Source: Acinetobacter phage ZZ1
Sequence record: NC_018087.3
Direction: 5' to 3' (one strand)
Length of the DNA: 64,000 bases
Shown here: positions 29,770 to 44,348 of the stretch, in pieces
Position numbering within the stretch: the stretch's first letter is position 1
Layout of the letters: the number at the start of each line of letters is the position of its first letter
Translations under genes and position numbers: made by a program
Notes under the pieces: generated by a model
Told to the model about the DNA's origin: nothing
Database searches by the model: none
The model's input: only the letters and a program-made list of their open reading frames with translations

Positions 29770-30430
29770 ATGTTTGATCTTTTAACAGAAACTCAATTAA
29801 ATGAAATTTTTGATGCGGATACACCAGGTGTCGTGTATCCTGTTGAAAATCTAACACCTAATGCAAAAGTACCACAAATGTTACATATGAAAGTACCGGG
29901 CACTAATGATTTAATTATTAGATTGACTCATTTGGATACAATAGGTACTCGTGTAAAAGCTGTGCAGCCAAATGATAAAACAGTTCAAGTCTTTTTAATG
30001 TCATTATCAGATAAGGGCAATATTACTGATTTTAGAGGTGGTTTAGGTACTGATCCAGTTGGTGCAATTAATACAATGTTTGCAACTGTAATGGATATTT
30101 CTAAAAAATATCACTTCGAATCGGTTTTATTCAGATTCACTAGAACAAAAATGAAAGGTAAATCTGAACAGGCTAAACGTGTTTTATCTCGTTTAATTAA
30201 GCAAAGATCAGGAGGACGATATACTACTTTAGAAGAAGTAACTCGATCGGAATCCAAAAAGTTTGATTTCGCTTTGGCTATAAAGAAAAATTCTGATTTA
30301 TTAGATGATATTGCTTCTTCTGCTAAGGGATATCAAAAAGTTGAAACTAAAGCCGGTATTACATATATTAATGACAACACTGGTAATCAAGTAACTAAAG
30401 CTGAAGTTGTCGCTGATGTATTAACATCCC
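29770..30430 (+). repeat. direct repeat copy A of the Alt N-terminal domain (about 220 codons); copy B is 31917..32580
   Basis: The two proteins are about 70% identical over ~200 aa (LTHLDT.GTRVKAVQP.DKTVQVFLMSLS.KGNITDFRGGLGTDPVGAINT). Confidence 0.8.
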
Positions 30431-31857
30431 AATCTGCTAAAATTACAGATCAACAAATTGCAGCAAAATCTAAAATTTCCAGACGAGCAGCATTTGATGC
30501 AATGTATAATGTCGGAACAGAATTTTCAGCTAAACGTAATGAAACTAATGAAGCGACATTCCAAGAGTTAAAAAATACTGTTCCTATTACGCCTGCAACT
30601 CGTCCGGAATCAATAGTTTTTAGACATATTGCAAATAAAATTAAATATAAAAGTTATGCAGATTCTTTGCGTAATTGGAACCCAAAAGAAGTTAAGTACG
30701 GTCCTGGTAATTTAAATGCAGAAACATTCTTAAGCATGATGGCCGATGTTTTTAAAACCACACCTGCGAACATTTTTAAATTGTTTCAAGAACATGTCGA
30801 TGCATTTGCTGATATTGTTGAGCAGACGGACCCACGAGATACAAATGCAACTGTCGTTAAAATTGCAAATTATTTTTCATCTGGTAGATTTGCAGAATTA
30901 GATTTTGATGATAGACAAACATTAATCAAAGGCGCTGTATACACTTTTATTCATTACATTTCAAATGATATAAGAGAAGCTTATAGTGATTATACAATAG
31001 GTGAAATTTCAGCAGAAACCAAATATACTGATGAAGATATTAAAGCTATTCAGTCATATACTGGCAATCGATATGTAGAAATGAACGACTTTTTGACTGG
31101 CAGTCGTCCAAATATTAGTCCTGCGACATTGGCTGAAATTAAAACATTAGATAATATTTTTGTGAATAAAGGTGATACTTTACCAAAAGGCACTAAAGTT
31201 TACCGCGGGATGTCAATGAAGGTTCCGCAACTTAAAACGGTTGTAGAATCAAAAATTATGTATTTTGCTAATATTGTATCCACATCATTACTGCCTGTAA
31301 TTTATAACGGGGCCTTTGCTGCAGTACATCCTACAATTGATAATGCGTCTACTGACATTACAAATTTAGATACAATTGAAGATGTATTGGGTTCAAAATT
31401 GTATACTCCAGACGATGCATATGATTATAAACGTCATGGCGAAATTGGTAAAACTATTTCATTAGGTATGGTTATTTCAGGTGTTGATAAAATTAACTGT
31501 ATTGTTCCCGGGAATGTTTCATCATATTCTCACGAGTGCGAAGTTATGTTACCTCGCGGTACAGCAATGCGAATTATAAAGTTTATGGCGCCACCTGAAG
31601 ATTCTGATGGTTGGGCTGCAACCGGTCTTATGTACTTAGATATAATTGAGCCTGATCAACTTACAGAATCAATGGAATTTATTGATGGAGATAAATTCTT
31701 AGCCGAAGGCGTTTTAGAACCTATCTCATTTAGTAATATGTTTAATACTAGACATAAAATATTAACCGAGTCATTAACACCAGATAATGAAATGTCTAAA
31801 GATTTATTATTAAGCTGTATTAATATGAATCAAGTTCCAGATAGATTTATGCGTTAA
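29770..31857 (+). CDS. alt: Alt ADP-ribosyltransferase (capsid-packaged, injected with DNA in T4)
   Basis: 695 aa against 682 for T4 Alt. Shares N-terminal LTHLDT..TRVKAVQP blocks and KISRRA, and the R-S-E ART motifs: YTGNRY, LPKGTKVYRG (Arg), YFANIVSTS (STS), ECEVMLPRGT (catalytic Glu). The C-terminus EPDQLTESMEFIDGDKFLAEG matches the T4 Alt C-terminus. Confidence 0.85.
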   Translation: MFDLLTETQLNEIFDADTPGVVYPVENLTPNAKVPQMLHMKVPGTNDLIIRLTHLDTIGTRVKAVQPNDKTVQVFLMSLSDKGNITDFRGGLGTDPVGAINTMFATVMDISKKYHFESVLFRFTRTKMKGKSEQAKRVLSRLIKQRSGGRYTTLEEVTRSESKKFDFALAIKKNSDLLDDIASSAKGYQKVETKAGITYINDNTGNQVTKAEVVADVLTSQSAKITDQQIAAKSKISRRAAFDAMYNVGTEFSAKRNETNEATFQELKNTVPITPATRPESIVFRHIANKIKYKSYADSLRNWNPKEVKYGPGNLNAETFLSMMADVFKTTPANIFKLFQEHVDAFADIVEQTDPRDTNATVVKIANYFSSGRFAELDFDDRQTLIKGAVYTFIHYISNDIREAYSDYTIGEISAETKYTDEDIKAIQSYTGNRYVEMNDFLTGSRPNISPATLAEIKTLDNIFVNKGDTLPKGTKVYRGMSMKVPQLKTVVESKIMYFANIVSTSLLPVIYNGAFAAVHPTIDNASTDITNLDTIEDVLGSKLYTPDDAYDYKRHGEIGKTISLGMVISGVDKINCIVPGNVSSYSHECEVMLPRGTAMRIIKFMAPPEDSDGWAATGLMYLDIIEPDQLTESMEFIDGDKFLAEGVLEPISFSNMFNTRHKILTESLTPDNEMSKDLLLSCINMNQVPDRFMR

Positions 31858-31860
31858 AAG

Positions 31861-31889
31861 AAAGGGCCCTTCATGGGCCCTTTCTTTAT
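31861..31889 (+). terminator. terminator hairpin (AAAGGGCCC-TTCAT-GGGCCCTTT) after alt, overlapped by the late promoter TATAAATA at 31877..31884
   Basis: Seen directly. Confidence 0.6.
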
Positions 31890-31916
31890 AAATAGAATAT
31901 AGCTAGGAGAAATAAC

Positions 31917-32606
31917 ATGTTATTAGAAAATATGACAATTGATCAATTAAACGAAGTTTTTGACGCCGATAATTTGGGTACAATTTATCCCGTTCAAGAT
32001 TTAACCCCAAAGGCAAAAGTACCTCAAATGCTTCATATTAAAGTGCCTGGTACTAATGATCTATTAGTTCGATTAACTCATTTGGATACTGTTGGGACTC
32101 GTGTAAAAGCAGTTCAACCTGGTGATAAAACCGTTCAAGTGTTTTTAATGTCACTATCTGAAAAAGGAAATATTACAGACTTTCGTGGTGGTTTAGGTAC
32201 CGATCCAGTTGGTGCAATTAATACTATTTTTACAACCGTTTTAGATATTTCTAAAAAATTTAGATTTGATTCCGTATTATTCCGTATCCCTAAAAATAAA
32301 ATGAAAGGTCAAGAACGTGCGGTACAACGAGTTCTTTCAAGATTAATTAAAAATCGTTCAGGTGGTCGTTTCACAACATTAGATGAAATTGAACGCGATG
32401 AATCAAAGAAATTTAGTTTTGTAATGGCGTATCGTAAAAATTCAGATGTTTTAGATCAAGTCCCATTATCGGATAATATTGAAAAAGTTGAGACTAAGGC
32501 AGGTGATACTTTTATTGATAAAGATACTGGAAAGCAAGTTTCTAAGGCAGAGGCGGTGGCTTCCGAAATTGTTAAAAAAGCTGAAAAGATTACAACAAAA
32601 ATGTAA
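31917..32606 (+). CDS. Alt paralog, N-terminal domain ORF (229 aa); upstream half of a frameshifted alt-like gene
   Basis: About 70% identical to the Alt N-terminus. Ends with KITTKM* where Alt continues. The downstream frame continues the homology. Confidence 0.75.
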   Translation: MLLENMTIDQLNEVFDADNLGTIYPVQDLTPKAKVPQMLHIKVPGTNDLLVRLTHLDTVGTRVKAVQPGDKTVQVFLMSLSEKGNITDFRGGLGTDPVGAINTIFTTVLDISKKFRFDSVLFRIPKNKMKGQERAVQRVLSRLIKNRSGGRFTTLDEIERDESKKFSFVMAYRKNSDVLDQVPLSDNIEKVETKAGDTFIDKDTGKQVSKAEAVASEIVKKAEKITTKM

Positions 32607-34066
32607 TTTCAAAAACTAAAGTAAGTAAGCAAGCTTTAATCGCAGCCCTTTATGGTGAAATCGAAACTATTAAAATGAGTACCGCTGCTCTTGAAGTTTT
32701 TAATGATTTACAATCAACAGCAGAACCTTTATCATCAAAAGGTGTAGAACTTTCAAAAGGCGTTTCTATGGCTGAAAGTTCAATGAAGAATAGTTTAACT
32801 ACTTTATCATATAATCTTGAGCGAGTTTCTCAAGTTGGCCGTGATCAACGTTTTGTGAATCACCCTGCGACTAATTTGGTAACTCATGTTGAGTATCAAT
32901 TAGCAAGCAATATTGGTTGGCCGATGGCTGAAGCGGAATCATTTGGTCGCTATCTATTGGGTCGAATTTCAGATGTTTTACGTAAAGCAAAACCGCTTCA
33001 ATTAAATAATGCATTTAAAGATATCGCAACGGCTGCCTTAGAACATGAAGGATTTAGAAAATTAACTCTTGCACAACGTTTAGATGTTATTGCACCTATT
33101 GTGACTTATATTATTTATGATACATCAGAAGATATGTCTAGAGTTGTTTCACGATCGCCTAATTTGTATGGCACTGCAAAATGGTCTCAGGCTCAAGCAG
33201 AAGTTGTTAAAAATTATTGTGATACGTCATATGACTTAATTAATGGTTTCTTGCGAGGTATTAATAACCCAGGTTCGCCTAAACGTCTGTATGAATTGGT
33301 TGAAACTATGGACTCAGTATTTGAAGAGCATGGGATTCGTCTTAAGAAAGGCACATTATTATACCGTGGCCAAAAATTAACAAAGCAAGATTTTGTTAAA
33401 ACTATGGAAAATAAAATGTTCTATTTCCGAAATTATGTTTCCACTTCAATGACTCCAATCATTTATGGTATATCGCAATTTGGTGAAGGTAGTATTGCTG
33501 CAATGTTAGCTGATAATCCAACTAACGCAGATACGCATACACCTGAAGAAATTGTTCAATCTGCTCAAGGTGAAGTTTCACCTCAAGATGAACTTATGAA
33601 TATGACATATTATGGTGAGCGTGAAGTTCCAAGTATTTCATATATTATTTCGGGTGCGGATAAACTTAAAGTGATTATCCCAGGTTCATTAGCCGAATAT
33701 TATGATGAACAGGAAGTTATTCTTCCTCGAGGTACAGTCATTAAGTATAATACTGTAATAGGTGGAAACCTTGATAAAACTGCCGATGGTTCTGCTCTAT
33801 TAAAAAATATTATAGTTGAAGCCGAAGTTTTAGATCCATCTTTATTAAAAGAATCTGTTGTTTATGATGGCGATCTTTTCATGGAAACAGGTGAAATGGT
33901 TGCAGTTGATTTAATTACAGAAGATGTGGCAGAAGTTACGGAATCACCATCTAATTCCTTTTCAGCACAATTCCGTAAACCAAGATTCGAAAATGAGTCT
34001 AATGAAATTTTACAAGCTTTATCTGCAATAGCATTTAAAAATATTAAACCTAAATTTATTAGCTAA
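32585..34066 (+). CDS. Alt paralog, ADP-ribosyltransferase domain portion (frame open from 32585; first ATG at 32675), continuing the 31917 ORF after a -1 frame change at ACAAAAATG (~32600)
   Basis: The upstream-open frame encodes ISKTKVSKQALIAALYG, matching Alt's IAAKSKISRRAAFDAMYN. ART motifs are present: YRGQKL (Arg), YFRNYVSTS (STS), EQEVILPRGT (Glu). Confidence 0.75.
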   Translation, partial: KDYNKNVISKTKVSKQALIAALYGEIETIKMSTAALEVFNDLQSTAEPLSSKGVELSKGVSMAESSMKNSLTTLSYNLERVSQVGRDQRFVNHPATNLVTHVEYQLASNIGWPMAEAESFGRYLLGRISDVLRKAKPLQLNNAFKDIATAALEHEGFRKLTLAQRLDVIAPIVTYIIYDTSEDMSRVVSRSPNLYGTAKWSQAQAEVVKNYCDTSYDLINGFLRGINNPGSPKRLYELVETMDSVFEEHGIRLKKGTLLYRGQKLTKQDFVKTMENKMFYFRNYVSTSMTPIIYGISQFGEGSIAAMLADNPTNADTHTPEEIVQSAQGEVSPQDELMNMTYYGEREVPSISYIISGADKLKVIIPGSLAEYYDEQEVILPRGTVIKYNTVIGGNLDKTADGSALLKNIIVEAEVLDPSLLKESVVYDGDLFMETGEMVAVDLITEDVAEVTESPSNSFSAQFRKPRFENESNEILQALSAIAFKNIKPKFIS

Positions 34067-34096
34067 AGAAAAGGGAGCCTTATGGCTCCCTTTCTT
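34066..34096. terminator. bidirectional terminator (AAGGGAGCC-TTAT-GGCTCCCTT) between the convergent alt-paralog and ligase operons
   Basis: Seen directly. Confidence 0.7.
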
Positions 34097-34301
34097 ATAC
34101 AATATGTAAAATCCGATGGACCATAGTATGGCCTAAATCTTCATTTTTAATTAAATTTTTTGCAAATTTATCTCGTTGTTCCAATGATTCAAAATTTAAT
34201 TGTGTAACAGCCACACTAGTTGACACTGTAGTGTTATTGGTTACACCTGTTCGTATTATTTTGGCATGAACTTCTAAAATTGCTGTACACATTTTACTCA
34301 C
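34095..34301 (-). CDS. hypothetical protein (68 aa)
   Basis: ORF downstream of ligase, overlapping it by 8 nt. Confidence 0.25.
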   Translation of the reverse strand: MSKMCTAILEVHAKIIRTGVTNNTTVSTSVAVTQLNFESLEQRDKFAKNLIKNEDLGHTMVHRILHIV

Positions 34302-35802
34302 CTATTACATTCATTGCATCAGGGAATACATCTACAAGGGTATTTGTATCGGTTTTATCTCGGCGAAGTTTAAGAATAATTGGTAAGAATAAACTCACAT
34401 GATCTTTACGACCTTCTGCAGTAATCCATCCATTGCATTTAATTTCAGCAATAGTTCCAATTAATTCTTCAGACATTACCATTAGTTTTGTGCGATTTAG
34501 TTCATCTAATTCATCAAATGGGATGTCAATCCATTCGCCTTTAACTTTAATGGCATTTGTATCTGTAAACCCTGAACCACATTTAACTCGGATTAAATTA
34601 TCATCAGATAGTAATAAAACAGCGCCAACTTTAGATGGGTCTTTAGAATATTCAACTACACCGACAATACGCAAATCGATTGTAATTTCTTCTTTAAACT
34701 TAACTTGGTTTTTAGATCGTTTGTTTTCCCAAAGACCAAATGTATTTTTAAGAATAATACCTTCAAGGCCTTGCTCAACATATGATTTATAGATTTCACG
34801 AGCTTCATCTACATTATTAACAATTGTACTTTCAATTAAAATAACACGACGAGATTTATGAGCTAACTCGGTTAATTGCTGGAATCTGACCGAATATTCT
34901 AAAGACTTTTCGCCATCATAAATTACTTTTAACGGCACTAAATCCCATACTTGGAAGCTCATTGATGCGGCTTCTTGTTTACTAATTGTGCCTTTAAGAG
35001 ATTTATTTGCGATACCATTTGATTCAGAACGTAATGCAACAACAGCTTTACTTTCTTTATCTGATACAACTTGGGCGGTGCCTGTGACTTCTTCGTTATC
35101 CATCATCCACTCGATACCAACAGCTTGATTACCAGTATCTTTTGAAGCAAAGTAAACCAATTCACCATCAACCATACATGGTCCATGTACTTCACGGAAA
35201 GCTCGGGTCATTGAGATTAAATCGGATTTTAAAATATCCAAGCCGAGATATTCATTACCGGCGCGTGAAAATAATTTTACATCTTCAAGATTATCTCCGC
35301 GGATTTCAGCAAAACAGCGTGCACCATCTGCTTTTAATTGTGCATATGCTGGATATTTAATTTCAGCCAATGCTTTCGCAGACATAGAAGACGCAAGCAT
35401 TTGAGGTTGTTTTGGAATTAAACCTTTCCAAACTTTGTTTGCAATTGTGGCACCAGCCCCAATATCTAAATCACGTGCAATGACACGTTCAACTACAATT
35501 GCGTCTGCTTCCGGTAAAGAGCTTAGACAATCTGCTAACATTGCAATAGCCGCATTTCCTGTTACTTGACGTGTTGCAATTACTTGTTCTAAAATATTAA
35601 GAACATCGTCTAAACTACGTTCGGTATCTGATCCTTGTACATCATAAAATGGAATTTTCTTAATACCGTATTGTAGACGAGGATGGTACGCCATACGGAA
35701 TACACGCTTAAAAATATCATTTTTCGCATATTCTTTAATAATTTCTTGCTTTTGATTTGTCGAATCTGTTGCAGCAATTTCATTTAAAATATCTAAAATC
35801 AT
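34294..35802 (-). CDS. 30: ATP-dependent DNA ligase gp30
   Basis: KxDG adenylation motif (AQLKADGARC). 502 aa against 487 in T4. Conserved position next to alt. Confidence 0.9.
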   Translation of the reverse strand: MILDILNEIAATDSTNQKQEIIKEYAKNDIFKRVFRMAYHPRLQYGIKKIPFYDVQGSDTERSLDDVLNILEQVIATRQVTGNAAIAMLADCLSSLPEADAIVVERVIARDLDIGAGATIANKVWKGLIPKQPQMLASSMSAKALAEIKYPAYAQLKADGARCFAEIRGDNLEDVKLFSRAGNEYLGLDILKSDLISMTRAFREVHGPCMVDGELVYFASKDTGNQAVGIEWMMDNEEVTGTAQVVSDKESKAVVALRSESNGIANKSLKGTISKQEAASMSFQVWDLVPLKVIYDGEKSLEYSVRFQQLTELAHKSRRVILIESTIVNNVDEAREIYKSYVEQGLEGIILKNTFGLWENKRSKNQVKFKEEITIDLRIVGVVEYSKDPSKVGAVLLLSDDNLIRVKCGSGFTDTNAIKVKGEWIDIPFDELDELNRTKLMVMSEELIGTIAEIKCNGWITAEGRKDHVSLFLPIILKLRRDKTDTNTLVDVFPDAMNVIGE

Positions 35803-35861
35803 TTAGAACTCCAAGTTAATAGGGACATATACATTTTAACATATAAATTTGTACAGCAAGA

Positions 35862-36524
35862 TTAAAAAGTTTTTTCTGCATATTCTTGAATAGGAAGAAC
35901 TCTCGATAGGTAATGCAATCGTACTTCATTTAAGTCTTTAGCAGTATAATGTGGGACTGGACATTCAGGTCTTGGTCCACGTTGAATATAATAACGCGGT
36001 ACATCAGGCAACACGCGCGAAGCAGACTCGATATTAGAGCATACATCATCAATAAACATGACAATATTTTCATATTTAAAACGCACACGTTTTAAGATTT
36101 GGTCTTTACTTTCACCAAAATTACAAACAAAAATATCTTTAAATGCACCCGGAAATAATGCATTTAAGTTAAACATACGGTTCATAACGGTATCTTTGTC
36201 TGTACCTAATGCTGTAACTGCAACAAAATCCCAATGTTCCTTCATTGTATTAATCATCTCAAGGGCATCTTGATATGGAGACAAATACTTAATAAAATTA
36301 GATTTATTGTAATCTTCCATAAAAATTTTGGCAATAGCCGGATCACATCCGAACAATTCTGCAGGAGACATAAATTCTTCGGTTAAAATACATTTAAGTG
36401 CATTGTCTGTATTTAAAGCATGTTTGGTCAAATAATACGGTAGACCAGATTGCCATTTTACACATACACCGTCAATATCAATTGCAATTACAGGTCGCTT
36501 ACTTTCATTACGAATAAAATTCAT
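35862..36524 (-). CDS. HAD-superfamily hydrolase, probable 5'(3')-deoxyribonucleotidase-like
   Basis: N-terminal DxDGV motif (IAIDIDGVCVKW) typical of the HAD/NT5C family. 220 aa, in a T4 30.x slot. Confidence 0.5.
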   Translation of the reverse strand: MNFIRNESKRPVIAIDIDGVCVKWQSGLPYYLTKHALNTDNALKCILTEEFMSPAELFGCDPAIAKIFMEDYNKSNFIKYLSPYQDALEMINTMKEHWDFVAVTALGTDKDTVMNRMFNLNALFPGAFKDIFVCNFGESKDQILKRVRFKYENIVMFIDDVCSNIESASRVLPDVPRYYIQRGPRPECPVPHYTAKDLNEVRLHYLSRVLPIQEYAEKTF

Positions 36525-36529
36525 TTCAA

Positions 36530-37021
36530 TTATCCAAATTTCTTAATTAAAAATTCTGCATACTTTTCACGGATGCGTGTTAAATTACCCACAAATTCTT
36601 CAATTGTGAGAATTGTATCATATGGATCGGTTTTACCAATAGAATGCTTTAGTTCCTTACCTAAAGAATCATACAAAGCCTTTTGGTATTTTTCATTCTG
36701 AGCAAAACAACACATAAACCCGCGCTTTAATAGTTCTTGATAAAAATCAGAATGCCTATTAAATGGTTGCCCTTTCCAATATAAAGTTTGACCTTTAATC
36801 GGACGAATACCTCCAGAGGTTTTAGCCTGGATTCCATGCATTGCAAAGATTTCTTTTTGTCTTTTCGGATTACTCTCGCGAAGACCTTGTAAAAATCCTT
36901 CTGTCGAACCAAAGTACATATTATCCATTATAAATGGATTTGCAGTTAAATTACTCAATTGCCCGGCTGGACCAGACAATCGAAAGTAAATGTCAATACA
37001 ATCAGACATATGAAAGTCCAC
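36530..37021 (-). CDS. NADAR (YbiA-like, DUF1768) domain protein
   Basis: IYFRLSGPAGQLSNL...F.....YF.STEGFLQGLR follows the YbiA N-terminal pattern (FY...G.LSNF ... EHYFQA.KF). 163 aa. Confidence 0.5.
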   Translation of the reverse strand: MDFHMSDCIDIYFRLSGPAGQLSNLTANPFIMDNMYFGSTEGFLQGLRESNPKRQKEIFAMHGIQAKTSGGIRPIKGQTLYWKGQPFNRHSDFYQELLKRGFMCCFAQNEKYQKALYDSLGKELKHSIGKTDPYDTILTIEEFVGNLTRIREKYAEFLIKKFG

Positions 37022-37067
37022 TTGTTGAAATTTGATTTATTATATAACAAGTGAAATACAATGTAAA

Positions 37068-37104
37068 TAAAAAGGCCTCAATTATTTGAGGCCTTTTTAT
37101 TTTA
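37068..37104. terminator. bidirectional terminator (AAAGGCCTCAA-TTAT-TTGAGGCCTTT flanked by A/T runs)
   Basis: 11-bp stem seen directly. Confidence 0.7.
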
Positions 37105-37404
37105 TTTAAAGTATTTTAGATCGCCAGAATAAACTGACATATACTGTGCTTTGTTCGCACTTTTGTCATATTCATTTATCTGAAAATCAGATCCTTTCTT
37201 TTGAACAAATCGAAGTGTAGTTTTAGATGCTTCCAAAATTACAATATCTTTAAATTCTTTACCGGCTTTATTGACACCATGATCACCTGGTTTACGATCA
37301 GCATTGGCATCAATCAAGTCATATTCTACTTGTTTAAGGGTTGAAGAATAGCCTTCATTTAATTGAAATTTAGATTCTTCTGCGATTTGGCTAAACGGTT
37401 TCAT
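37102..37404 (-). CDS. hypothetical protein (100 aa)
   Basis: ORF only. Confidence 0.35.
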   Translation of the reverse strand: MKPFSQIAEESKFQLNEGYSSTLKQVEYDLIDANADRKPGDHGVNKAGKEFKDIVILEASKTTLRFVQKKGSDFQINEYDKSANKAQYMSVYSGDLKYFK

Positions 37405-37405
37405 G

Positions 37406-37729
37406 TTACTTTCCTTGATTTAAAAATTTTGCGCTTGATAGTGGGATATGGATTGAATTCCAAAGGTCTCTGTACATTTCTACAGATTCAATATGATATT
37501 CATTTTCAGCACCCTCTTTATGAGAATATTGAAATATGCGAGCATTATTTTGAAGAATAACACTACCTTCTAAAACCGTACCATCGAACTTAAGTGCATT
37601 AGATCCAATTGCCCTATTTGCATTTGTAGCAACAAATTGATAATCTTTTGGTCCTAATTCGCGAGGCGTGTATAATTCATGAGGATATCCGGCATCACGG
37701 GCATCCTCAAATAAGTGTTTGTATTTCAT
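37406..37729 (-). CDS. hypothetical protein (107 aa)
   Basis: ORF only. Confidence 0.35.
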   Translation of the reverse strand: MKYKHLFEDARDAGYPHELYTPRELGPKDYQFVATNANRAIGSNALKFDGTVLEGSVILQNNARIFQYSHKEGAENEYHIESVEMYRDLWNSIHIPLSSAKFLNQGK

Positions 37730-37730
37730 A

Positions 37731-37979
37731 TTATTTCAGCGTTACAATAATGTGCCGAACTGATTTATGAGCACGTGAACAAAGACGTTTAGCATATTTA
37801 ATTTCATCTAATTGAACAAGTTCATCATGTAATGCTTTTTGTGCAGGATTTAAATGCTTAAAATATTGCAAAAAGTGCAGCATTGATGAACTTACATCAA
37901 TAATAGAACCGTAATTATCGTGGCCTCTTGACCAAGCTGTACGCTGAATATTTAGAATATGTTGAATTTCTTGTTCCAT
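37731..37979 (-). CDS. hypothetical 82-aa protein at the T4 rIII position
   Basis: Exactly 82 aa like T4 rIII, and immediately downstream of gene 31 in transcription order. I cannot verify the sequence similarity. Confidence 0.3.
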   Translation of the reverse strand: MEQEIQHILNIQRTAWSRGHDNYGSIIDVSSSMLHFLQYFKHLNPAQKALHDELVQLDEIKYAKRLCSRAHKSVRHIIVTLK

Positions 37980-38021
37980 TTCTTTTACTCTATAAAGTTA
38001 TTTTATAGTAGTATTTATAAT

Positions 38022-38042
38022 AGAAAAAGGGCCCGAAGGCCC
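38022..38042 (-). terminator. terminator after gene 31 on the minus strand (GGGCC-CGAA-GGCCC followed by TTTTTCT on minus)
   Basis: Seen directly. Confidence 0.55.
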
Positions 38043-38047
38043 CTTAA

Positions 38048-38380
38048 TTAATTATTTGATACACAAGCAATATTACGATAATGACATGTGATGTATTTTT
38101 CATCTCGATCTTTTTCTTTAACATTACCATATGCTACATCGGGATGTGGTACATTTAATTTATCCCCTAATGGGAATGGGCAACCGTCGCCAATTTCAAA
38201 TAATCCTTTTGGAACATTAGGGCCAATTTTAAACACTTCGCAAATTTTAGGTACTTCACCTTGTTCGCGAACACCAATGACCAAATCTGGAACTACATCT
38301 GAAAAAATTTCAGTACCAGCTGAACGCGCTACCGCTTTTAATACAACATATTCGCCTAATGCAACAATTTCTTTTGACAT
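38048..38380 (-). CDS. 31: co-chaperonin gp31 (GroES-like, for capsid protein folding)
   Basis: 110 aa against 111 in T4. GroES-like beta pattern (VVLKAV...SG..IF...). Conserved position between rIII and cd. Confidence 0.75.
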   Translation of the reverse strand: MSKEIVALGEYVVLKAVARSAGTEIFSDVVPDLVIGVREQGEVPKICEVFKIGPNVPKGLFEIGDGCPFPLGDKLNVPHPDVAYGNVKEKDRDEKYITCHYRNIACVSNN

Positions 38381-38383
38381 AAT

Positions 38384-38713
38384 TTACCCTTCAATTTTAG
38401 ATTGAGCTTGTTTTAAGATTTCATCTTTATTTAGTCCACCAAATCCAATTAAATCATCAAAAGAGAATGAACGCCATCCATCTTTAATATCATATACCGG
38501 CAATGATGTAGTAGATTCTTTACGAATAGAACCATCTGATTTAGGTGGTGGATTCATATACTTTTCATAAAGTTCTTGATCAATTAGACCCGGATCACGT
38601 GTTGCTGATAACACACGAATAGAACCATCTTTCTTTTTAAAAACAACTTCATGAATACCTAAAGATAGTTTTAGTTTTAGGTATTCGCGTAAAACAATAT
38701 TGGAATCAGACAT
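38384..38713 (-). CDS. hypothetical protein (109 aa; 31.1 position)
   Basis: ORF; synteny. Confidence 0.4.
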   Translation of the reverse strand: MSDSNIVLREYLKLKLSLGIHEVVFKKKDGSIRVLSATRDPGLIDQELYEKYMNPPPKSDGSIRKESTTSLPVYDIKDGWRSFSFDDLIGFGGLNKDEILKQAQSKIEG

Positions 38714-39261
38714 TATTCGCCTCCGAAATTAACAATATTTTCCCAATTCAAATTTTTAAGTTGGACTTTACTGATTTGGTGGACTTGGACACCGGCATCT
38801 GTGAGAATTTTTTCCCACCCTGGTTGATTTCGATCATAGCTCTCTGAGTAGACCAATTGTTTAATACCACTGTTGGCAATAGCTTTTGCGCAATCAGGAC
38901 ACGGGCTAAGAGTGACGTACATTGTCGCACCTTCAATCGCTGTACCATTCTTAGCTGCATATAAGATTGCATTAAGTTCTGCATGGATTTCATTTGCCTT
39001 GCTCCAGGCACTGTGTAATTCACGACACTCACGTTTAAGAGCGGTTTGGTTGGTATGAGGAGGCACCGGATTGTATCTGTTAACGGTCCATCCTTCTTGT
39101 TCGGCATGATCACAGCAATTTACTCCTCCGGCCGGTGAGCCGTTATATCCAGTCGAAATAATACGACCATTTTTTGCAATAACGGCGCCAACTTTCCAAG
39201 ATACACATTTAGATTCTTGTGACACAAGATATGCAATTTGCATTAATGATGTTGATTTCAT
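38713..39261 (-). CDS. cd: dCMP deaminase
   Basis: Zinc-binding CCDHAE and PCPDC motifs of cytidine/dCMP deaminases. 182 aa against 193 in T4. Confidence 0.9.
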   Translation of the reverse strand: MKSTSLMQIAYLVSQESKCVSWKVGAVIAKNGRIISTGYNGSPAGGVNCCDHAEQEGWTVNRYNPVPPHTNQTALKRECRELHSAWSKANEIHAELNAILYAAKNGTAIEGATMYVTLSPCPDCAKAIANSGIKQLVYSESYDRNQPGWEKILTDAGVQVHQISKVQLKNLNWENIVNFGGE

Positions 39262-39287
39262 ATCATTTACCTCTAAAGTATAACTTA

Positions 39288-39821
39288 TTATAGCGCAACA
39301 ACTTCCGAGCGTATGATAGTTGCTTTACCTTTTTTATGATGAAGTAATTCTTTAATTGCTTCAATTTTATTAACATGTATAACTAACCAAGTTTCTTCAT
39401 ACCCATAATTATTTTCACAAATAAGACGATATTGCTCGGCTAAACCAAAATGACGAAGCATACGGGCGTTGTAATCTTTAAAATGGCCTTGCATTAAATC
39501 AAGTGGATCGACCCATTTAACAAGACCTGTTTCAGATTCTGCTACTTCTTGTCGAGGCACAGTATAATCGATTACTGCTAAAAATGTTGATACTTCCCAT
39601 TCACTTGAATTATCACATTCAACAAATCGATCGCTATTTACCAAATTAACGGTATAACCAGTCTCTTCTAATGTTTCTCGAATGGCACATTCTTCTGGAG
39701 TTTCACCAGGGTCTGCTTTGCCCCCTGGTAATCCAAAATCGTTATGATCATTTTTCCGAGAAACTCCTAAAATTTTATTTGTTTTAGGATCAATAATTAA
39801 TGTACAAGCTGAATATCGCAT
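39288..39821 (-). CDS. nudE: Nudix hydrolase (NudE-like)
   Basis: Nudix box GGKADPGETPEECAIRETLEETGY. Confidence 0.85.
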   Translation of the reverse strand: MRYSACTLIIDPKTNKILGVSRKNDHNDFGLPGGKADPGETPEECAIRETLEETGYTVNLVNSDRFVECDNSSEWEVSTFLAVIDYTVPRQEVAESETGLVKWVDPLDLMQGHFKDYNARMLRHFGLAEQYRLICENNYGYEETWLVIHVNKIEAIKELLHHKKGKATIIRSEVVAL

Positions 39822-39822
39822 A

Positions 39823-40134
39823 TTACCACCAAATTGTTATCGTGTCATCGCTGAAATTTGAGCTATTTTCACAAGTACATCCAACGGCTCGCATATTTTT
39901 AATAAATTCATTTCTAAATTTAACTTGTGGACAATCTGCACCACCGGCTCTTGAACCCACTTTTGCCAAAATAGTACATTTTGTTGATGTGCCAATTGTT
40001 AATGACGAAAACCCTAACATCGCTTTATGTTCAATTTCTTTAAAAACCAGTTGGGTTAGATAAATTAAACGTTTATGCGCATCGGCAGGCGTGGATAACC
40101 GACTTAGACTTTTTGCTTCTTGAATTAACATCAA
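39823..40134 (-). CDS. hypothetical protein (103 aa)
   Basis: ORF only. Confidence 0.35.
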   Translation of the reverse strand: MMLIQEAKSLSRLSTPADAHKRLIYLTQLVFKEIEHKAMLGFSSLTIGTSTKCTILAKVGSRAGGADCPQVKFRNEFIKNMRAVGCTCENSSNFSDDTITIWW

Positions 40135-41048
40135 AACTCTCCAAAATTACATTGTAAACATGGTACACCGATACGGCGCCACATTTCACAAACTCTGTCG
40201 CGGTCATCAAAGGCGCATTCAACATTATAATGTGGTGCAATTTCATCCCAAAAGATTTCTTCTTTAACAATGTCATCCGCTCGAGTATCATGCCACTTAC
40301 GCATTAATAAACGATCTGCGGGAATACCATTTTTATTCAACCATGTTGCTGTTAGATTTTGATATTCAATATGATCATCTGCGTGACCTGCATTGCGGCC
40401 TGATACGCAAATAATCAAATAACCCTTTTCTTTGTACATTTTAAGAATATTTGCAACAAAATCATTGACAGTATCATCAATTAATTTTGGATAATCAAAT
40501 GCATGACGATGATCATTATTGGCTAAAGTGCCATCTAAGTCAAAGATAACCGCTTTTGGTTTAGACTCATCAGGAATATAATCAAATTGTTTACCTGAAA
40601 ATTGCTGCATTTTTAAGAACATGTCGCGCAAGACTTGCTTAGGAACCGCTTTATTTCCACGCACATTATTACGCTTTTCTAATTCAATCCAAGGTACATA
40701 AAAAGGTTCCAATGTAAACTCATATGTATTTTTTGGAAACATTGCAGCAACATCATCAACAATAGCTTTATACGTTGATCGTGTATCAAAATTTAAGTTT
40801 GTATCTGCAATAATAATTGTCTCGGTAGACTGATTTGTCAAAGCAAATTTAAGAGACTCTTTAACTGCATTTGTAACAATATTTTCAGTTACACGTGAAT
40901 ACTTATATTGACCACCACCTTTTAACATAGTACGAAGATCATCACGATTTAATACAATTGTATTTTTATTTTTGGCAGCATATTCCGCAGCCCAAGTTGA
41001 TTTACCCGATCCAGGTGCACCGACTGTTAAAATTACATGTTTACGCAT
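40131..41048 (-). CDS. pseT: polynucleotide 5'-kinase / 3'-phosphatase
   Basis: N-terminal P-loop GAPGSGKST and C-terminal HAD phosphatase motif VIFDLDGTL. 305 aa against 301 in T4. Confidence 0.9.
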   Translation of the reverse strand: MRKHVILTVGAPGSGKSTWAAEYAAKNKNTIVLNRDDLRTMLKGGGQYKYSRVTENIVTNAVKESLKFALTNQSTETIIIADTNLNFDTRSTYKAIVDDVAAMFPKNTYEFTLEPFYVPWIELEKRNNVRGNKAVPKQVLRDMFLKMQQFSGKQFDYIPDESKPKAVIFDLDGTLANNDHRHAFDYPKLIDDTVNDFVANILKMYKEKGYLIICVSGRNAGHADDHIEYQNLTATWLNKNGIPADRLLMRKWHDTRADDIVKEEIFWDEIAPHYNVECAFDDRDRVCEMWRRIGVPCLQCNFGEF

Positions 41049-41049
41049 T

Positions 41050-41241
41050 TTATTTTCTCACACAACTATATTTGGCTTTACTTACAAATTTTTTGGTGTT
41101 TTCATCTTTAAGTTGCTCGCCTGCAACTAGACATACATTTGGATTTCTGAATCCATCGATGGTAATAGTATGAACCTCGTCTGAAAACCAACCAAACATT
41201 GTAATAGTAACAATTAATGTATACATTTTTATTTCCCACAC
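41050..41241 (-). CDS. hypothetical small membrane protein (63 aa)
   Basis: Hydrophobic N-terminal segment. Confidence 0.3.
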   Translation of the reverse strand: MWEIKMYTLIVTITMFGWFSDEVHTITIDGFRNPNVCLVAGEQLKDENTKKFVSKAKYSCVRK

Positions 41242-41717
41242 AATAAATCGATTAACTCCGCTGCTTCTTCAAGGTCTAACCCATCAAATAAAATATGACG
41301 TTTGCATGTAGTTGATTTGGCTTTATCTTTACCTGAAGCAATAAGCATTTCATCGAATGTCGCTTCTTTATGTAAAATACCCATACGAATTTTTGGAGAT
41401 GTACCACAAATAATGTATACTTTGCAACCATTAATTAATACGTTAGGTTGAGTTTCATTAATAAAAACTTCACCATTTTTGATACGATTTTCAAAGAAAC
41501 GTTTCGCTTCACGAATATGATCATCTTTTGCTAAAGAAGCTGCTAATTTTTTACGTTCTGCTACATCAGCTAAAGTTTGACGTTTTAATACAAGTTTACG
41601 TAAATCTGCAAAAGTCCCAACACGTTTACCGTTTTTAAGTACACTATACCAATCCTTTGAATCTCCGAACATTTCAACTAAAACTTCTGGAGTCAATGTA
41701 TACACAGTATGTTTCAT
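41229..41717 (-). CDS. hypothetical protein (162 aa)
   Basis: ORF only. Confidence 0.4.
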   Translation of the reverse strand: MKHTVYTLTPEVLVEMFGDSKDWYSVLKNGKRVGTFADLRKLVLKRQTLADVAERKKLAASLAKDDHIREAKRFFENRIKNGEVFINETQPNVLINGCKVYIICGTSPKIRMGILHKEATFDEMLIASGKDKAKSTTCKRHILFDGLDLEEAAELIDLLCGK

Positions 41718-41737
41718 TTTATTTTCCTCATGTGTTT

Positions 41738-41776
41738 AAAAAGAATAAACCCATTATGCACAAGTCATAATGGGTT
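41738..41776 (-). terminator. terminator: 11-bp stem AACCCATTATG/CATAATGGGTT, followed on the minus strand by TATTCTTTTT
   Basis: Seen directly. Confidence 0.6.
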
Positions 41777-41788
41777 GTAAACATTAAT

Positions 41789-42022
41789 TTATTCATGTGT
41801 TCGAAAAATATTCAAAGTTCTTTCAAAATTACGTAGAGTAGTTGACTTTACTTGAATAACTTTAACTTTACCGGGCTTAACACTATTGCTTAAATTATAA
41901 ATTTCAGTTTGTTGTACAAATATTTTAACTTCTAATTTCATTAGCTCTGTACTAAGACTTTTAACTTTATACATTAGAAAACATATACACAAAAAACATA
42001 TAATAAGCAATAGTGTTACCAT
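41789..42022 (-). CDS. hypothetical small membrane protein (77 aa)
   Basis: N-terminal TM helix (LLLIICFLCICFLMY). Confidence 0.35.
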   Translation of the reverse strand: MVTLLLIICFLCICFLMYKVKSLSTELMKLEVKIFVQQTEIYNLSNSVKPGKVKVIQVKSTTLRNFERTLNIFRTHE

Positions 42023-42024
42023 TT

Positions 42025-43176
42025 TTATTCATCCACAATATTTGTTCTGTACTCAGGTGGTACAAAGCGGCCAAAATTTTTCAGAAATACTTTATTGATT
42101 TCTTTAACCATATCTTCAATAGAAATTTTACCGGTGTATAATAACATAGAAACACCAAAAAGTTCAAACATATTTAAATTTTTAAAGTATGTTTGGGCAT
42201 CTATGGCATAATCTTTCCGCTCTACTCCTTTATGGCTATCATGGAAACGGGTTAATTCAGTAATAGCCGTGTTTAAATAAGTGAAAAATATATTTTCAAA
42301 TTTTTCAATTTTGGCTTTAGATAGTTCATCATCAAACAATGATTTAATATCATCTGAACCACCTTCAACAACTACTTGAAATAAACCCTCATTATTGTTT
42401 AATGTGTCTTTGACTCGATGTAAATTTGAATACCATGCAGTTTTAAGTTTAAATTGAAGACCTGATTTCATTACAAATACATAGCCTTCTGTATTTTGCA
42501 TTGATCTAATTTCTTCAATGACTTCATCAGGATCACCCTGTGGAATTATTGCATCCACTAAAAATGGTCGCAATGCAGCATCAGCTTGAATTTCTCGATA
42601 CGGTACATACTCGCCAGTTTCATTATTACGGATATTTAATAAAATTAAAGCTCGTTCTGGATAAGCAATAACAATTCGATTATTAGGTGCAACATATTCA
42701 AAATTACATGTATAACCAGCTTCAGCTAATTCTAAAACACGGGCTCTTAAATGTTTATATTGAATAGCCCACAATAAGTTTGTAGCCTCAATCGCTTGCG
42801 TAGACGTAATACTGGCCTTTGATTTTAAGTATAAATCACCTTTATCAATGTAAGATGAAACCAATGAACCATCTACTTTATCCATACCATACTCAATTGT
42901 AGATAAATCTAAATCTGTAGTAAATGGATTTTCATTTAAGTTAAAAAATTTCTCCATTGGTCTTGACATAATACGAACTGGAGTTTCATCATCCATTTCG
43001 AACATAATGCCTCGACATTCTAATGCATCGGGTTTTAACCAATCACTATAACTTGCATAATGGTATGTAAAGATGCGAACTTTTGTACCTTGAATAGTTG
43101 TAAAATCTTTATAGAAAAAATTAGTAAAATTACCCGGCACAATTAAGGCCATTAAATTGTTGTATAATTCTTGCAT
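42025..43176 (-). CDS. rnlA: RNA ligase 1 (RnlA, gp63; also tail fibre attachment catalyst in T4)
   Basis: Close match to T4 Rnl1 (MQEL.NNLM.L..., YASYSDWL.PDALECRGIMFEMD, MEKFFNLNENPFT). KxDG nucleotidyltransferase motif (MDKVDGSL). Confidence 0.9.
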   Translation of the reverse strand: MQELYNNLMALIVPGNFTNFFYKDFTTIQGTKVRIFTYHYASYSDWLKPDALECRGIMFEMDDETPVRIMSRPMEKFFNLNENPFTTDLDLSTIEYGMDKVDGSLVSSYIDKGDLYLKSKASITSTQAIEATNLLWAIQYKHLRARVLELAEAGYTCNFEYVAPNNRIVIAYPERALILLNIRNNETGEYVPYREIQADAALRPFLVDAIIPQGDPDEVIEEIRSMQNTEGYVFVMKSGLQFKLKTAWYSNLHRVKDTLNNNEGLFQVVVEGGSDDIKSLFDDELSKAKIEKFENIFFTYLNTAITELTRFHDSHKGVERKDYAIDAQTYFKNLNMFELFGVSMLLYTGKISIEDMVKEINKVFLKNFGRFVPPEYRTNIVDE

Positions 43177-43185
43177 GACAACTCC

Positions 43186-43216
43186 AAAATAAAGGGGCGA
43201 AAAGCCCCTTTTTATT
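43186..43216. terminator. bidirectional terminator (GGGGC-GAAAA-GCCCC with A/T-run flanks) between nrdB and rnlA
   Basis: Seen directly. Confidence 0.65.
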
Positions 43217-44348
43217 AACGTTTTAAGTATTTACGACGGAATTCAGCAATTATATTTGAATCCACATCATTGTCAATTTGATTAATCAAGTAAGAACTTA
43301 ATTCAGCCTCTTGCTTTGCAACTTGTACCGAAGATGCCATTAAGTATTTGTTTACCCAAGGCAAAGGGTGTGATTTAGGTCGTTCAATTGGGCAACGCAA
43401 CCCAACGTTATTCATTGATGGTACTAATTGGTAATCAATAAAGTCCCAAACAAGTTCAACGGTTAAACCATCTGGACACCCATTGCGATAAACATATTGA
43501 GCCCATGCACGTTCTTGATCACGAACATCCATAAACATAGATTCAGCTTCTTCTTTACATTCAAGTGCAATTTCGCGCCATTCTGTGCCGTCAATACCTT
43601 TGTTCATTTGTTGAATGATATAACGAGTGCCTTGGTGATGAAGGTTTTCGTCTCGTGCAATAAATTGCATGATTTTCATGTTACCTTCCATGATTTTCAT
43701 GTTTTCAAAGAAGTTCCACGTCGAGATGAAAGACACATAAAAACGAATTGCTTCTAATGCATTAATTGCATGTAAACATAAGTACAATGCTTTCTTTAAT
43801 TCACGGAATTGTTCAGGAGTATCAACGCCGCGAATTTTATCAGCTTGCCACAAAATAGTTTGTTGACGTAAAGCATCATAGCGTTCACAGATTGCGGTGG
43901 CTCGAGCCATAATTTCTTTATTTGCAACTACGCCATCAAAAATTTTAGATGGGTCAGAATATAAGTTACGAATAATATGTGTGTATGACCGAGAGTGAAT
44001 AGTTTCAGAGAACGTCCACGTGACCAACCAAGTTTCAAGTGCAATATCAGAACAAATATCACCAAGGGCTAAAATTGGAGCTCGGCCTTGTACAGAGTCC
44101 ATTAGAATTTGATAACCAAGATTATTTGTAAAAACTTCTTGCATTGCTTCGTTTAATTTCTTAAACTGGCCGACATCCGTTGAAAGGTTTACTTCCTCAG
44201 GTCTCCAAAACTGCGCTAATTGATTTGTAGTTAAATCTTCAAACTTTTGATGCTTTACTTCTTCATAACGTGCCACACCAGTAGGCTCACCAAAAAACAT
44301 TGGCTGTAACATATGATTGGCTAATTGATTAAAAACTGTGTTGCTCAT
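43215..44348 (-). CDS. nrdB: ribonucleotide reductase class Ia beta subunit
   Basis: Di-iron/tyrosyl radical motifs (FSETIHSRSYTHII, EAIRFYVSF). 377 aa, continuous with no intron. Confidence 0.95.
   Translation of the reverse strand: MSNTVFNQLANHMLQPMFFGEPTGVARYEEVKHQKFEDLTTNQLAQFWRPEEVNLSTDVGQFKKLNEAMQEVFTNNLGYQILMDSVQGRAPILALGDICSDIALETWLVTWTFSETIHSRSYTHIIRNLYSDPSKIFDGVVANKEIMARATAICERYDALRQQTILWQADKIRGVDTPEQFRELKKALYLCLHAINALEAIRFYVSFISTWNFFENMKIMEGNMKIMQFIARDENLHHQGTRYIIQQMNKGIDGTEWREIALECKEEAESMFMDVRDQERAWAQYVYRNGCPDGLTVELVWDFIDYQLVPSMNNVGLRCPIERPKSHPLPWVNKYLMASSVQVAKQEAELSSYLINQIDNDVDSNIIAEFRRKYLKR

Follow-up and report, generated by a model that had tools for sequence, protein, structure and literature searches.

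Acinetobacter phage ZZ1 carries an ortholog of the T4 anti-DarT factor AdfN within a gene order inherited from T4-type phages

The gene 30.3 product (gp30.3) of phage T4 has been renamed AdfN (anti-DarT factor NADAR; Johannesman et al., Nat Commun 2025; PMC11825919). The determinant of resistance to the host defense DarTG1 in T-even phages maps to this protein: its deletion sensitizes T4, it is both necessary and sufficient for resistance, and its ectopic expression rescues phage RB69 (PMC11825919). Purified AdfN strips ADP-ribose off DarT1-modified DNA, and AdfN is weakened by E36A, by K43A, and by loss of the C-terminal helix (RB69 AdfN) (PMC11825919). In vitro, according to an independent study, the T4 protein removes ADP-ribose specifically from guanine (PMC11125620), and the removal of ADP-ribose from guanine in DNA together with the countering of DarTG1 has been described for T4 AdfN, AdfN-Bas32, and AdfN-Bas60 (PMC11825919, PMC11125620). 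AdfN homologs occur across the T4 superfamily, as noted in the AdfN paper, which cites the ZZ1 genome paper in this connection (PMC11825919). Here, we describe the counterpart of AdfN in a 64,000-nucleotide stretch (the window) of the genome of Acinetobacter phage ZZ1 (NC_018087.3), a T4-like member of the Straboviridae, together with two enzyme genes in its vicinity (i.e., those for a HAD-superfamily phosphatase and a Nudix hydrolase), which an original prediction had combined with it into an ADP-ribose-processing toolkit. Coordinates of all features are given in Table 1.

The gp30.3 phage clade was already treated as an established NADAR clade in papers of 2023-24 and is defined by its last strand, where His replaces the Glu of Escherichia coli YbiA or the Asp of DarG1 (PMC11125620, PMC11543638). 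DarG1, the DarT1-linked NADAR antitoxin (BC4488 family; Schuller et al., Mol Cell 2023; PMC11543638), resembles the ZZ1 protein in its NADAR fold and in the predicted reaction, which hydrolyzes guanine-N-linked ADP-ribose on DNA. However, DarG1 has the Asp in place of the phage His, an N-terminal extension, and DarT1 as its neighbor, whereas the ZZ1 protein is an orphan without a toxin partner. YbiA, unlike the phage NADARs, is a housekeeping N-glycosidase of riboflavin intermediates and gives no protection from DarT1 in cells (PMC11125620). DarTG1 has been reported in Acinetobacter baumannii (PMC11543638), and DarTG is located in A. baumannii defense hotspots; thus, a matching host defense exists.

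The ZZ1 gene is a positional and sequence ortholog of T4 30.3, with the NADAR fold and the catalytic residues. Its product matches Pfam PF08010 (Phage_30_3) with 130 bits (cut-off, 36) over profile positions 3 to 138 of 138; T4 AdfN also belongs to this family, and the two proteins align over nearly their full length (39% identity over 148 amino acids [aa]; E = 4e-31), up to T4 residue 150 of 152. The gene holds the same place in the gene order as T4 30.3, upstream of 30.2 and gene 30, and its product is of the same size as AdfN and likewise has no N-terminal extension. The likeliest start is the ATG at 37009, as in the ZZ1 annotation, and the resulting protein of 159 aa matches ZZ1p0215 with 100% identity. 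The original prediction had called a NADAR/YbiA-like product at 36530..37021; the family assignment holds on both profile and fold, but the start (i.e., the GTG at 37021) most likely does not.

An AlphaFold2 model built with 39 relatives reached a pLDDT of 96. Foldseek comparison of this model with the PDB returned E. coli YbiA (2b3w; E = 7e-5; prob 1.00; TM 0.64) and the Phytophthora NADAR in complex with ADP-ribose (PnNADAR; 8bau; prob 0.98); all remaining matches had a prob of 0.04 or less, and these two are the sole credible structural neighbors. Both nevertheless differ from the ZZ1 protein in sequence (15 to 18% identity) and in having Glu at the last-strand catalytic position. The Pfam NADAR model (PF08719) gave no match to the ZZ1 protein even at E ≤ 1, and it matched 13 of the 39 relatives (best E value, 8.5e-6). 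PDB sequence searches gave a chance match only (E = 0.5) with the protein alone and none at E ≤ 1 with the family profile; NCBIfam contained no match for this protein or for the HAD protein, and the PADLOC defense models yielded nothing meaningful for the NADAR protein (E = 0.046), the HAD protein, or T4 AdfN. Since there is no direct PF08719 match, the link from the ZZ1 protein to NADAR runs via PF08010, the fold comparison, and the relatives; of the two likenesses originally expected, that to YbiA appears in the model, while that to the Pfam NADAR family does not appear directly.

The catalytic Glu (E37 in ZZ1, corresponding to E36 of T4 and E43 of PnNADAR) is unchanged in 39 of the 39 relatives, and so is the phage-clade His (H122), which lies in the motif KHSIGK of the last strand. 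The C-terminal helix of AdfN also has its counterpart in the ZZ1 model (helices 136-149 and 151-158). The column of T4 K43, a lysine that contacts ADP-ribose, is occupied by R44 in ZZ1, and by Lys in 28 and Arg in 11 of the 39 relatives.

Genes for gp30.3-type NADARs, 37 to 46% identical to the ZZ1 protein, were also found on many uncultivated IMG/VR phage contigs of 100 to 545 kb (loci L013-L082), with no T4-type neighbors detectable within 10 kb of the NADAR gene. Their occurrence on such contigs indicates that the NADAR clade is far wider than the T4-like phages.

We consider it likely that the region is a conserved T4-type early block, that its NADAR gene is an AdfN ortholog that counters DarTG1, and that the HAD and MutT-like Nudix proteins are separate from the NADAR function and form no module with it. 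Early in infection, a host DarT1-type toxin would put ADP-ribose on guanine bases of the phage DNA; the free-standing ZZ1 NADAR would then, most likely and by analogy with T4 AdfN, cut the N-glycosidic bond between ADP-ribose and guanine. Such de-ADP-ribosylation would restore a replicable template and defeat DarTG1-type abortive infection. The gp30.2-type HAD phosphatase would probably be expressed from the NADAR promoter, its T4 counterpart being dispensable for DarTG1 resistance, and the Nudix protein would act as a MutT-like pyrophosphohydrolase encoded in a separate, exchangeable cassette between the cd and pseT genes, with no evident tie to either ADP-ribose or the NADAR. An anti-DarTG role for the NADAR gene had been put forward in the original prediction, and it is supported via the orthology to T4 30.3/AdfN; this reading of the bare sequence proved correct. 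The anti-DarT role of phage NADARs as such is already known, having been published and shown experimentally for the T4 ortholog (2024-25). What is new is the intact ZZ1 copy with its catalytic residues, which is relevant to phage-therapy candidates against A. baumannii, where DarTG1 has been reported, together with the identification of gp30.2 as a HAD phosphatase by fold and motifs and the explanation of the apparent module as inherited gene order.

The HAD protein is 49% identical to T4 gp30.2 over the HAD core (E = 4e-63), belongs with it to phrog_420, and is encoded in the same position, directly 3' of 30.3; the T4 protein differs in having a C-terminal extension of about 60 aa (278 versus 220 aa). 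The ZZ1 protein has a Rossmannoid core plus a cap, and the catalytic motifs I to IV (DxD, S/T, K, and DD) are all present. Fold and motifs mark gp30.2 of the T4 family as a genuine HAD phosphatase, for which Pfam has no family. The narrower assignment as a DxDGV nucleotidase was not sustained, as the Pfam NT5C model (5'(3')-deoxyribonucleotidase) scored 14.7 bits, below its cut-off of 24.8. Dehalogenases, sugar phosphatases, a pyrophosphatase, and deoxyribonucleotidase-like proteins were structural neighbors at indistinguishable scores, and a PDB sequence search with the HAD protein gave only chance matches to kinases (E of about 0.05).

Directly 5' of the NADAR gene, a terminator-like hairpin and a sigma-70-like promoter candidate overlap by three bases, an arrangement that distinguishes the ZZ1 gene from that of T4 AdfN. 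Promoter-like matches in the region overall showed no excess over the shuffled expectation. Because a hairpin is followed by a promoter match and the NADAR and HAD genes are spaced by 5 nucleotides (nt), NADAR, HAD, and probably the ligase gene seem to form a single transcription unit with a fresh start at this point, and the HAD gene probably shares the putative NADAR promoter. With stop and restart signals this close together, the NADAR-HAD pair would have early expression of its own. Within the phage collection, ZZ1 is closest to Henu6 (Zedzedvirus zz1), with 93.6% identity over part of the region; the segment 37004-37441, which spans the terminator/promoter pair and most of the 100-aa open reading frame (ORF), is without a close match in Henu6.

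The three ORFs that had been proposed to form the toolkit indeed lie on the minus strand with the coordinates first given for them, and the additional partners pnk (pseT) and rnlA are present as well. From 34.3 to 43.2 kb, the minus-strand ORFs are those for the ligase, the 220-aa HAD protein, the NADAR (163 or 159 aa, depending on the start), two small products, rIII, gp31, the 31.1-like WYL_2 protein, the dCMP deaminase, the Nudix protein, a 103-aa product, the polynucleotide kinase, Alc, and RNA ligase 1. Between NADAR and Nudix lie rIII, gp31, the 31.1-like gene, and cd, along with no fewer than two terminator-like hairpins. The order alt - 30 - 30.2 - 30.3 ... rIII - 31 - 31.1 - cd ... 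pseT - alc - rnlA is shared with T4, and the order in Henu6 is also the same; T4 has no Nudix gene in its alt-rnlA region. The Alt-like ADP-ribosyltransferase (ART) genes (PF03496; 29770-31857 and 32675-34066), within 6 kb of which the original prediction had seen the three activities, are on the plus strand, convergent with the ligase gene, and do not belong to the same operon.

We surveyed the 10-kb neighborhoods of 80 other IMG/VR viral loci with a gp30.3-type NADAR, many of them on contigs of 100 to 545 kb. A 30.2-type HAD gene was found in 9 of the 80 and a related Nudix gene in 8 of the 80, nearly all of the carriers being T4-like phages; conversely, NADAR or HAD was nearby in only 1 of 82 related Nudix loci. 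Among 293 retrieved homologs, there was no HAD-NADAR, NADAR-Nudix, or HAD-Nudix fusion. In cultured T4-like phages, gp30.2 and gp30.3 have a near-identical spread (1,437 versus 1,508 records, with the same genus profile), and their genes are adjacent in most of the T4-like loci examined; in several T4-like loci, NADAR lies directly beside the ligase gene and 30.2 is absent.

HIDEN-SEQ, a published T4 transposon screen in an E. coli host with DarTG1 (sheet 'resampling_Control_vs_DarTG1'), identified exactly two significant genes genome-wide under DarTG1: 30.3 (log2 fold change, -7.25; adjusted p, 0) and 30.4 (-1.79; adjusted p, 0.014). Neutral under DarTG1 were 30.2 (-0.12), nudE (-0.03), pseT (0.01), alt (-0.01), modA (0.11), and modB (0.13); rnlA stood at 0.00 but could not be scored, since its insertions were too few in either condition. 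A transposon screen cannot score essential genes, and T4 30.2 is non-essential. The T4 gene 30.4 (L002 8766-8972) lies upstream of 30.3 and overlaps its start, and its depletion under DarTG1 is probably a polar effect, although a helper role is possible; no homologs of T4 30.4 or 30.1 were found in the ZZ1 window. Because of the adjacency, the possible shared promoter, and the near-identical distribution, gp30.2 was also weighed as the T-even factor that boosts AdfN. This role is unlikely, as T4 30.2 insertions are neutral (p = 0.61 for the above fold change) and most NADAR loci lack 30.2.

The Nudix ORF does encode a member of the Nudix hydrolase family, scoring 66 bits against PF00293 (cut-off, 21.1), and its Nudix box is complete (G34-x5-E40-x7-R48-E49-x2-E52-E53-x-G55, then Y56, with Thr at the first U position). 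Its best NCBIfam match was the MutT model TIGR00586, which aligned over the full length (E = 2e-9) with 37 bits against a cut-off of 98; a weaker likeness to YtkD/RppH-type RNA pyrophosphohydrolases was also seen. The ADP-ribose link that had been drawn by comparison with T4 NudE was not upheld, since the likeness is confined to the box and the ADP-ribose pyrophosphatase models remained far below their cut-offs (NudE, 20.7 bits, cut-off of 169; TIGR00052 [YffH/AdpP], 19.9 bits, cut-off of 79.55). A conserved Pro about 16 residues past the Nudix box reportedly marks ADP-ribose pyrophosphatases (an observation said to go back to Dunn et al. in 1999); this marker was not found in the ZZ1 protein, in which residues 71-73 are N-S-S. 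In PADLOC, the Nudix protein matched the candidate-system model PDC-S07 (E = 1e-11).

T4 NudE.1 (gene e.1) is said, in work attributed to Xu et al. in 2002, to hydrolyze FAD, ADP-ribose, and Ap3A. The ZZ1 Nudix protein resembles it only in the Nudix superfamily box (28 aligned residues; E = 0.004), and it was rejected as a NudE.1 ortholog on this box-only alignment, on the PHROG assignments (1198 versus 1185), and on its other genomic position; no NudE.1 ortholog was found within the 64-kb window. Relatives of the ZZ1 protein (E ≤ 1e-3) occur in only 101 phage records, including 63 of Acinetobacter phages, and the listed examples adjoin pseT. The ZZ1 gene itself abuts cd on one side and is tightly packed with pseT on the other. 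Neighbors among the 82 related Nudix loci were DNA ligase (7 loci), RnlA (6), cd (3), NADAR (1), and a 30.2-type HAD (1), with DNA ligase or RnlA at 6 kb or less in 11 of the 82.

On a 273-kb contig from Logan (SRR28248369; L087 5001-5901), a Nudix relative lies directly upstream of the dCMP deaminase gene and overlaps it, so that the Nudix-cd adjacency recurs in an unrelated large phage. A gene for RNA 2'-phosphotransferase (PF01885) is located 4 kb away on the same contig.

Comparison with Henu6 sets the Nudix gene apart from its surroundings. The flanks of ZZ1 and Henu6 are about 95% identical (34000-37003 and 40130-43500), while the whole cd-pseT interval (39293-40129) is replaced in Henu6 (L001 9354-10212). 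The two Nudix proteins share just 44% identity, and the small ORFs of about 100 aa in the two cassettes are unrelated and lie on opposite sides of the Nudix gene. The break points fall exactly at gene borders, which suggests a cassette-like exchange.

The three enzymes could in principle form a linked disposal pathway, in which NADAR frees ADP-ribose, the Nudix enzyme converts it to AMP plus ribose-5-phosphate, and the HAD enzyme dephosphorylates the products, as part of a toolkit to which the Alt ARTs, pnk, and rnlA would also belong. The chemistry is plausible, the three folds lie within 4 kb, and the HAD gene starts just past the NADAR stop codon; moreover, NADAR and Nudix tend to co-occur in DNA virus genomes, with early expression alongside ARTs in the case of T4-like phages (Iyer et al. 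2022; PMC9503650). However, we regard such a pathway as highly improbable in view of the unrelated genes and terminator-like hairpins between Nudix and NADAR, the inherited T4 synteny, the rare co-location in both surveys, the failure of the Nudix protein to fit any ADP-ribose pyrophosphatase model or to be a NudE.1 ortholog, and the neutrality of T4 30.2, nudE, pseT, and alt under DarTG1. NADAR, HAD, and Nudix are neighbors because of the inherited T4 gene order, and the three-enzyme ADP-ribose module of the original prediction is an artefact of that order. It is unlikely, too, that the main target of the NADAR is something other than DarT1-modified DNA (i.e., soluble ADP-ribose immune signals, Alt/Mod marks on nucleic acids, or an ADP-ribose-dependent defense that it blocks non-enzymatically). 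A phage NADAR reported to act without catalysis against Retron-Eco1 is indeed cited in PMC11825919, NADARs have been found to reverse cytidine ADP-ribosylation as well (PMC12945103), and three Alt-like genes adjoin in ZZ1. Against this stand the findings that all phage NADARs assayed to date take ADP-ribose off guanine in DNA and counter DarTG1 (PMC11825919, PMC11125620), that the invariant catalytic Glu and His favor an enzyme over a binder, and that loss of 30.3 in T4 had no phenotype without DarTG1. The proposed AdfN function has points against it as well. The ZZ1 protein shares only 39% of its residues with the experimentally studied T4 AdfN, so its activity is predicted by analogy, and it serves a phage of another host genus, Acinetobacter; it also has Arg instead of K43, a conservative replacement that is natural in 11 of its 39 relatives. 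T4 AdfN is fully effective only in T-even infection, for which a further phage factor is thought to be required (PMC11825919), and its activity in an Acinetobacter phage is therefore not to be assumed. The co-occurrence and adjacency of 30.2 and 30.3 leave room for a link that is not visible under DarTG1, and the screen was performed in T4 and E. coli with a non-orthologous Nudix gene (nudE), so that it is silent on the ZZ1 Nudix.

As for that Nudix gene, it is quite possible, if short of probable, that it works independently of NADAR, either as a nucleotide-pool enzyme (MutT or a dCTP/dNTP pyrophosphatase) that feeds the dCMP deaminase or as an RNA 5'-end/NAD-cap pyrophosphohydrolase that acts with Pnk and Rnl. 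The full-length MutT likeness and the weaker one to YtkD/RppH argue for this, as do its position between cd and pseT, the relative upstream of a dCMP deaminase gene on the 273-kb contig, and the proximity of DNA ligase or RnlA in some of the related loci; on the other hand, all NCBIfam scores are far under their cut-offs and the neighborhood associations are weak, with cd in 3 of the 82 loci. A more speculative idea is that the cd-pseT cassette supplies a fast-evolving counter-defense enzyme that destroys an immune signal or cap derived from NAD or ADP-ribose in Acinetobacter; in a weaker form of this idea, AdfN of Acinetobacter phages would receive help from the co-transcribed HAD protein gp30.2, which T4 can do without. 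We hold this to be rather improbable. If true, the cassette Nudix would be a second ZZ1 layer against NAD-based immunity, independent of AdfN.

Table 1. Features of the NADAR region in the ZZ1 window
Feature	Coordinates	Strand	Remarks
Three Alt-like genes: full-length (695 aa) plus split pair (229 + 463 aa)	29770..34066	+	PF03496 in the 695-aa and 463-aa products
ATP-dependent DNA ligase (gene 30)	34294..35802	-	3' of the HAD gene; synteny with Henu6 and T4
HAD-superfamily phosphatase, T4 gp30.2 ortholog, 220 aa	35862..36524	-	Begins 5 nt past the NADAR stop codon
NADAR-fold predicted ADP-ribosylglycohydrolase, T4 gp30.3/AdfN ortholog, ZZ1p0215, 159 aa	36530..37009	-	PF08010, E = 5e-38
Sigma-70-like promoter candidate, TTTACA-17-TATAAT, 11/12	37039..37067	-	30 nt 5' of the NADAR ATG; consensus match only
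Terminator-like hairpin, 17-bp stem	37065..37102	-	Would close the upstream transcription unit just 5' of the putative NADAR promoter
100-aa ORF	37102..37404	-	Between NADAR and rIII
rIII	37731-37979	-	phrog_1457 / phrog_931 (rIII + gp31 pair); unrelated to NADAR
gp31 co-chaperonin	38048-38380	-	phrog_1457 / phrog_931 (rIII + gp31 pair); unrelated to NADAR
31.1-like gene	38384-38713	-	Pfam WYL_2, PF10902, E = 1e-10
dCMP deaminase (cd)	38713..39261	-	PF00383, E = 8e-27
MutT-like Nudix hydrolase, C-terminal extension of ~50 aa	39288..39821	-	PF00293, E = 4e-18; outside the NADAR transcription unit
Small ORF, ~102 aa from ATG 40131	39823..40134	-	Between pseT and Nudix; without detectable homolog; part of the exchangeable cd-pseT cassette
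Polynucleotide kinase/3'-phosphatase (pseT)	40131..41048	-	PF25109, E = 1e-52, and PF13671
rnlA (RNA ligase 1)	42025-43176	-	Confirmed as named in the original prediction

The two small ORFs of 100 and 103 aa (37102-37404 and 39823-40134) gave no hit below E = 0.05 in Pfam, PHROG, or NCBIfam. The WYL_2 domain of the 31.1-like product is an Sm-like SH3 barrel, and a second match of this product was to a PHROG annotated as tail fiber protein. The lengths of the three Alt-like products equal those of ZZ1 CDS209-211 (PMC4177764), and the ART domain of the split pair is located in its 463-aa C-terminal piece only. The Alt-like genes are transcribed toward the ligase gene, which is the reverse of the T4 alt orientation and was already described in the ZZ1 genome paper.

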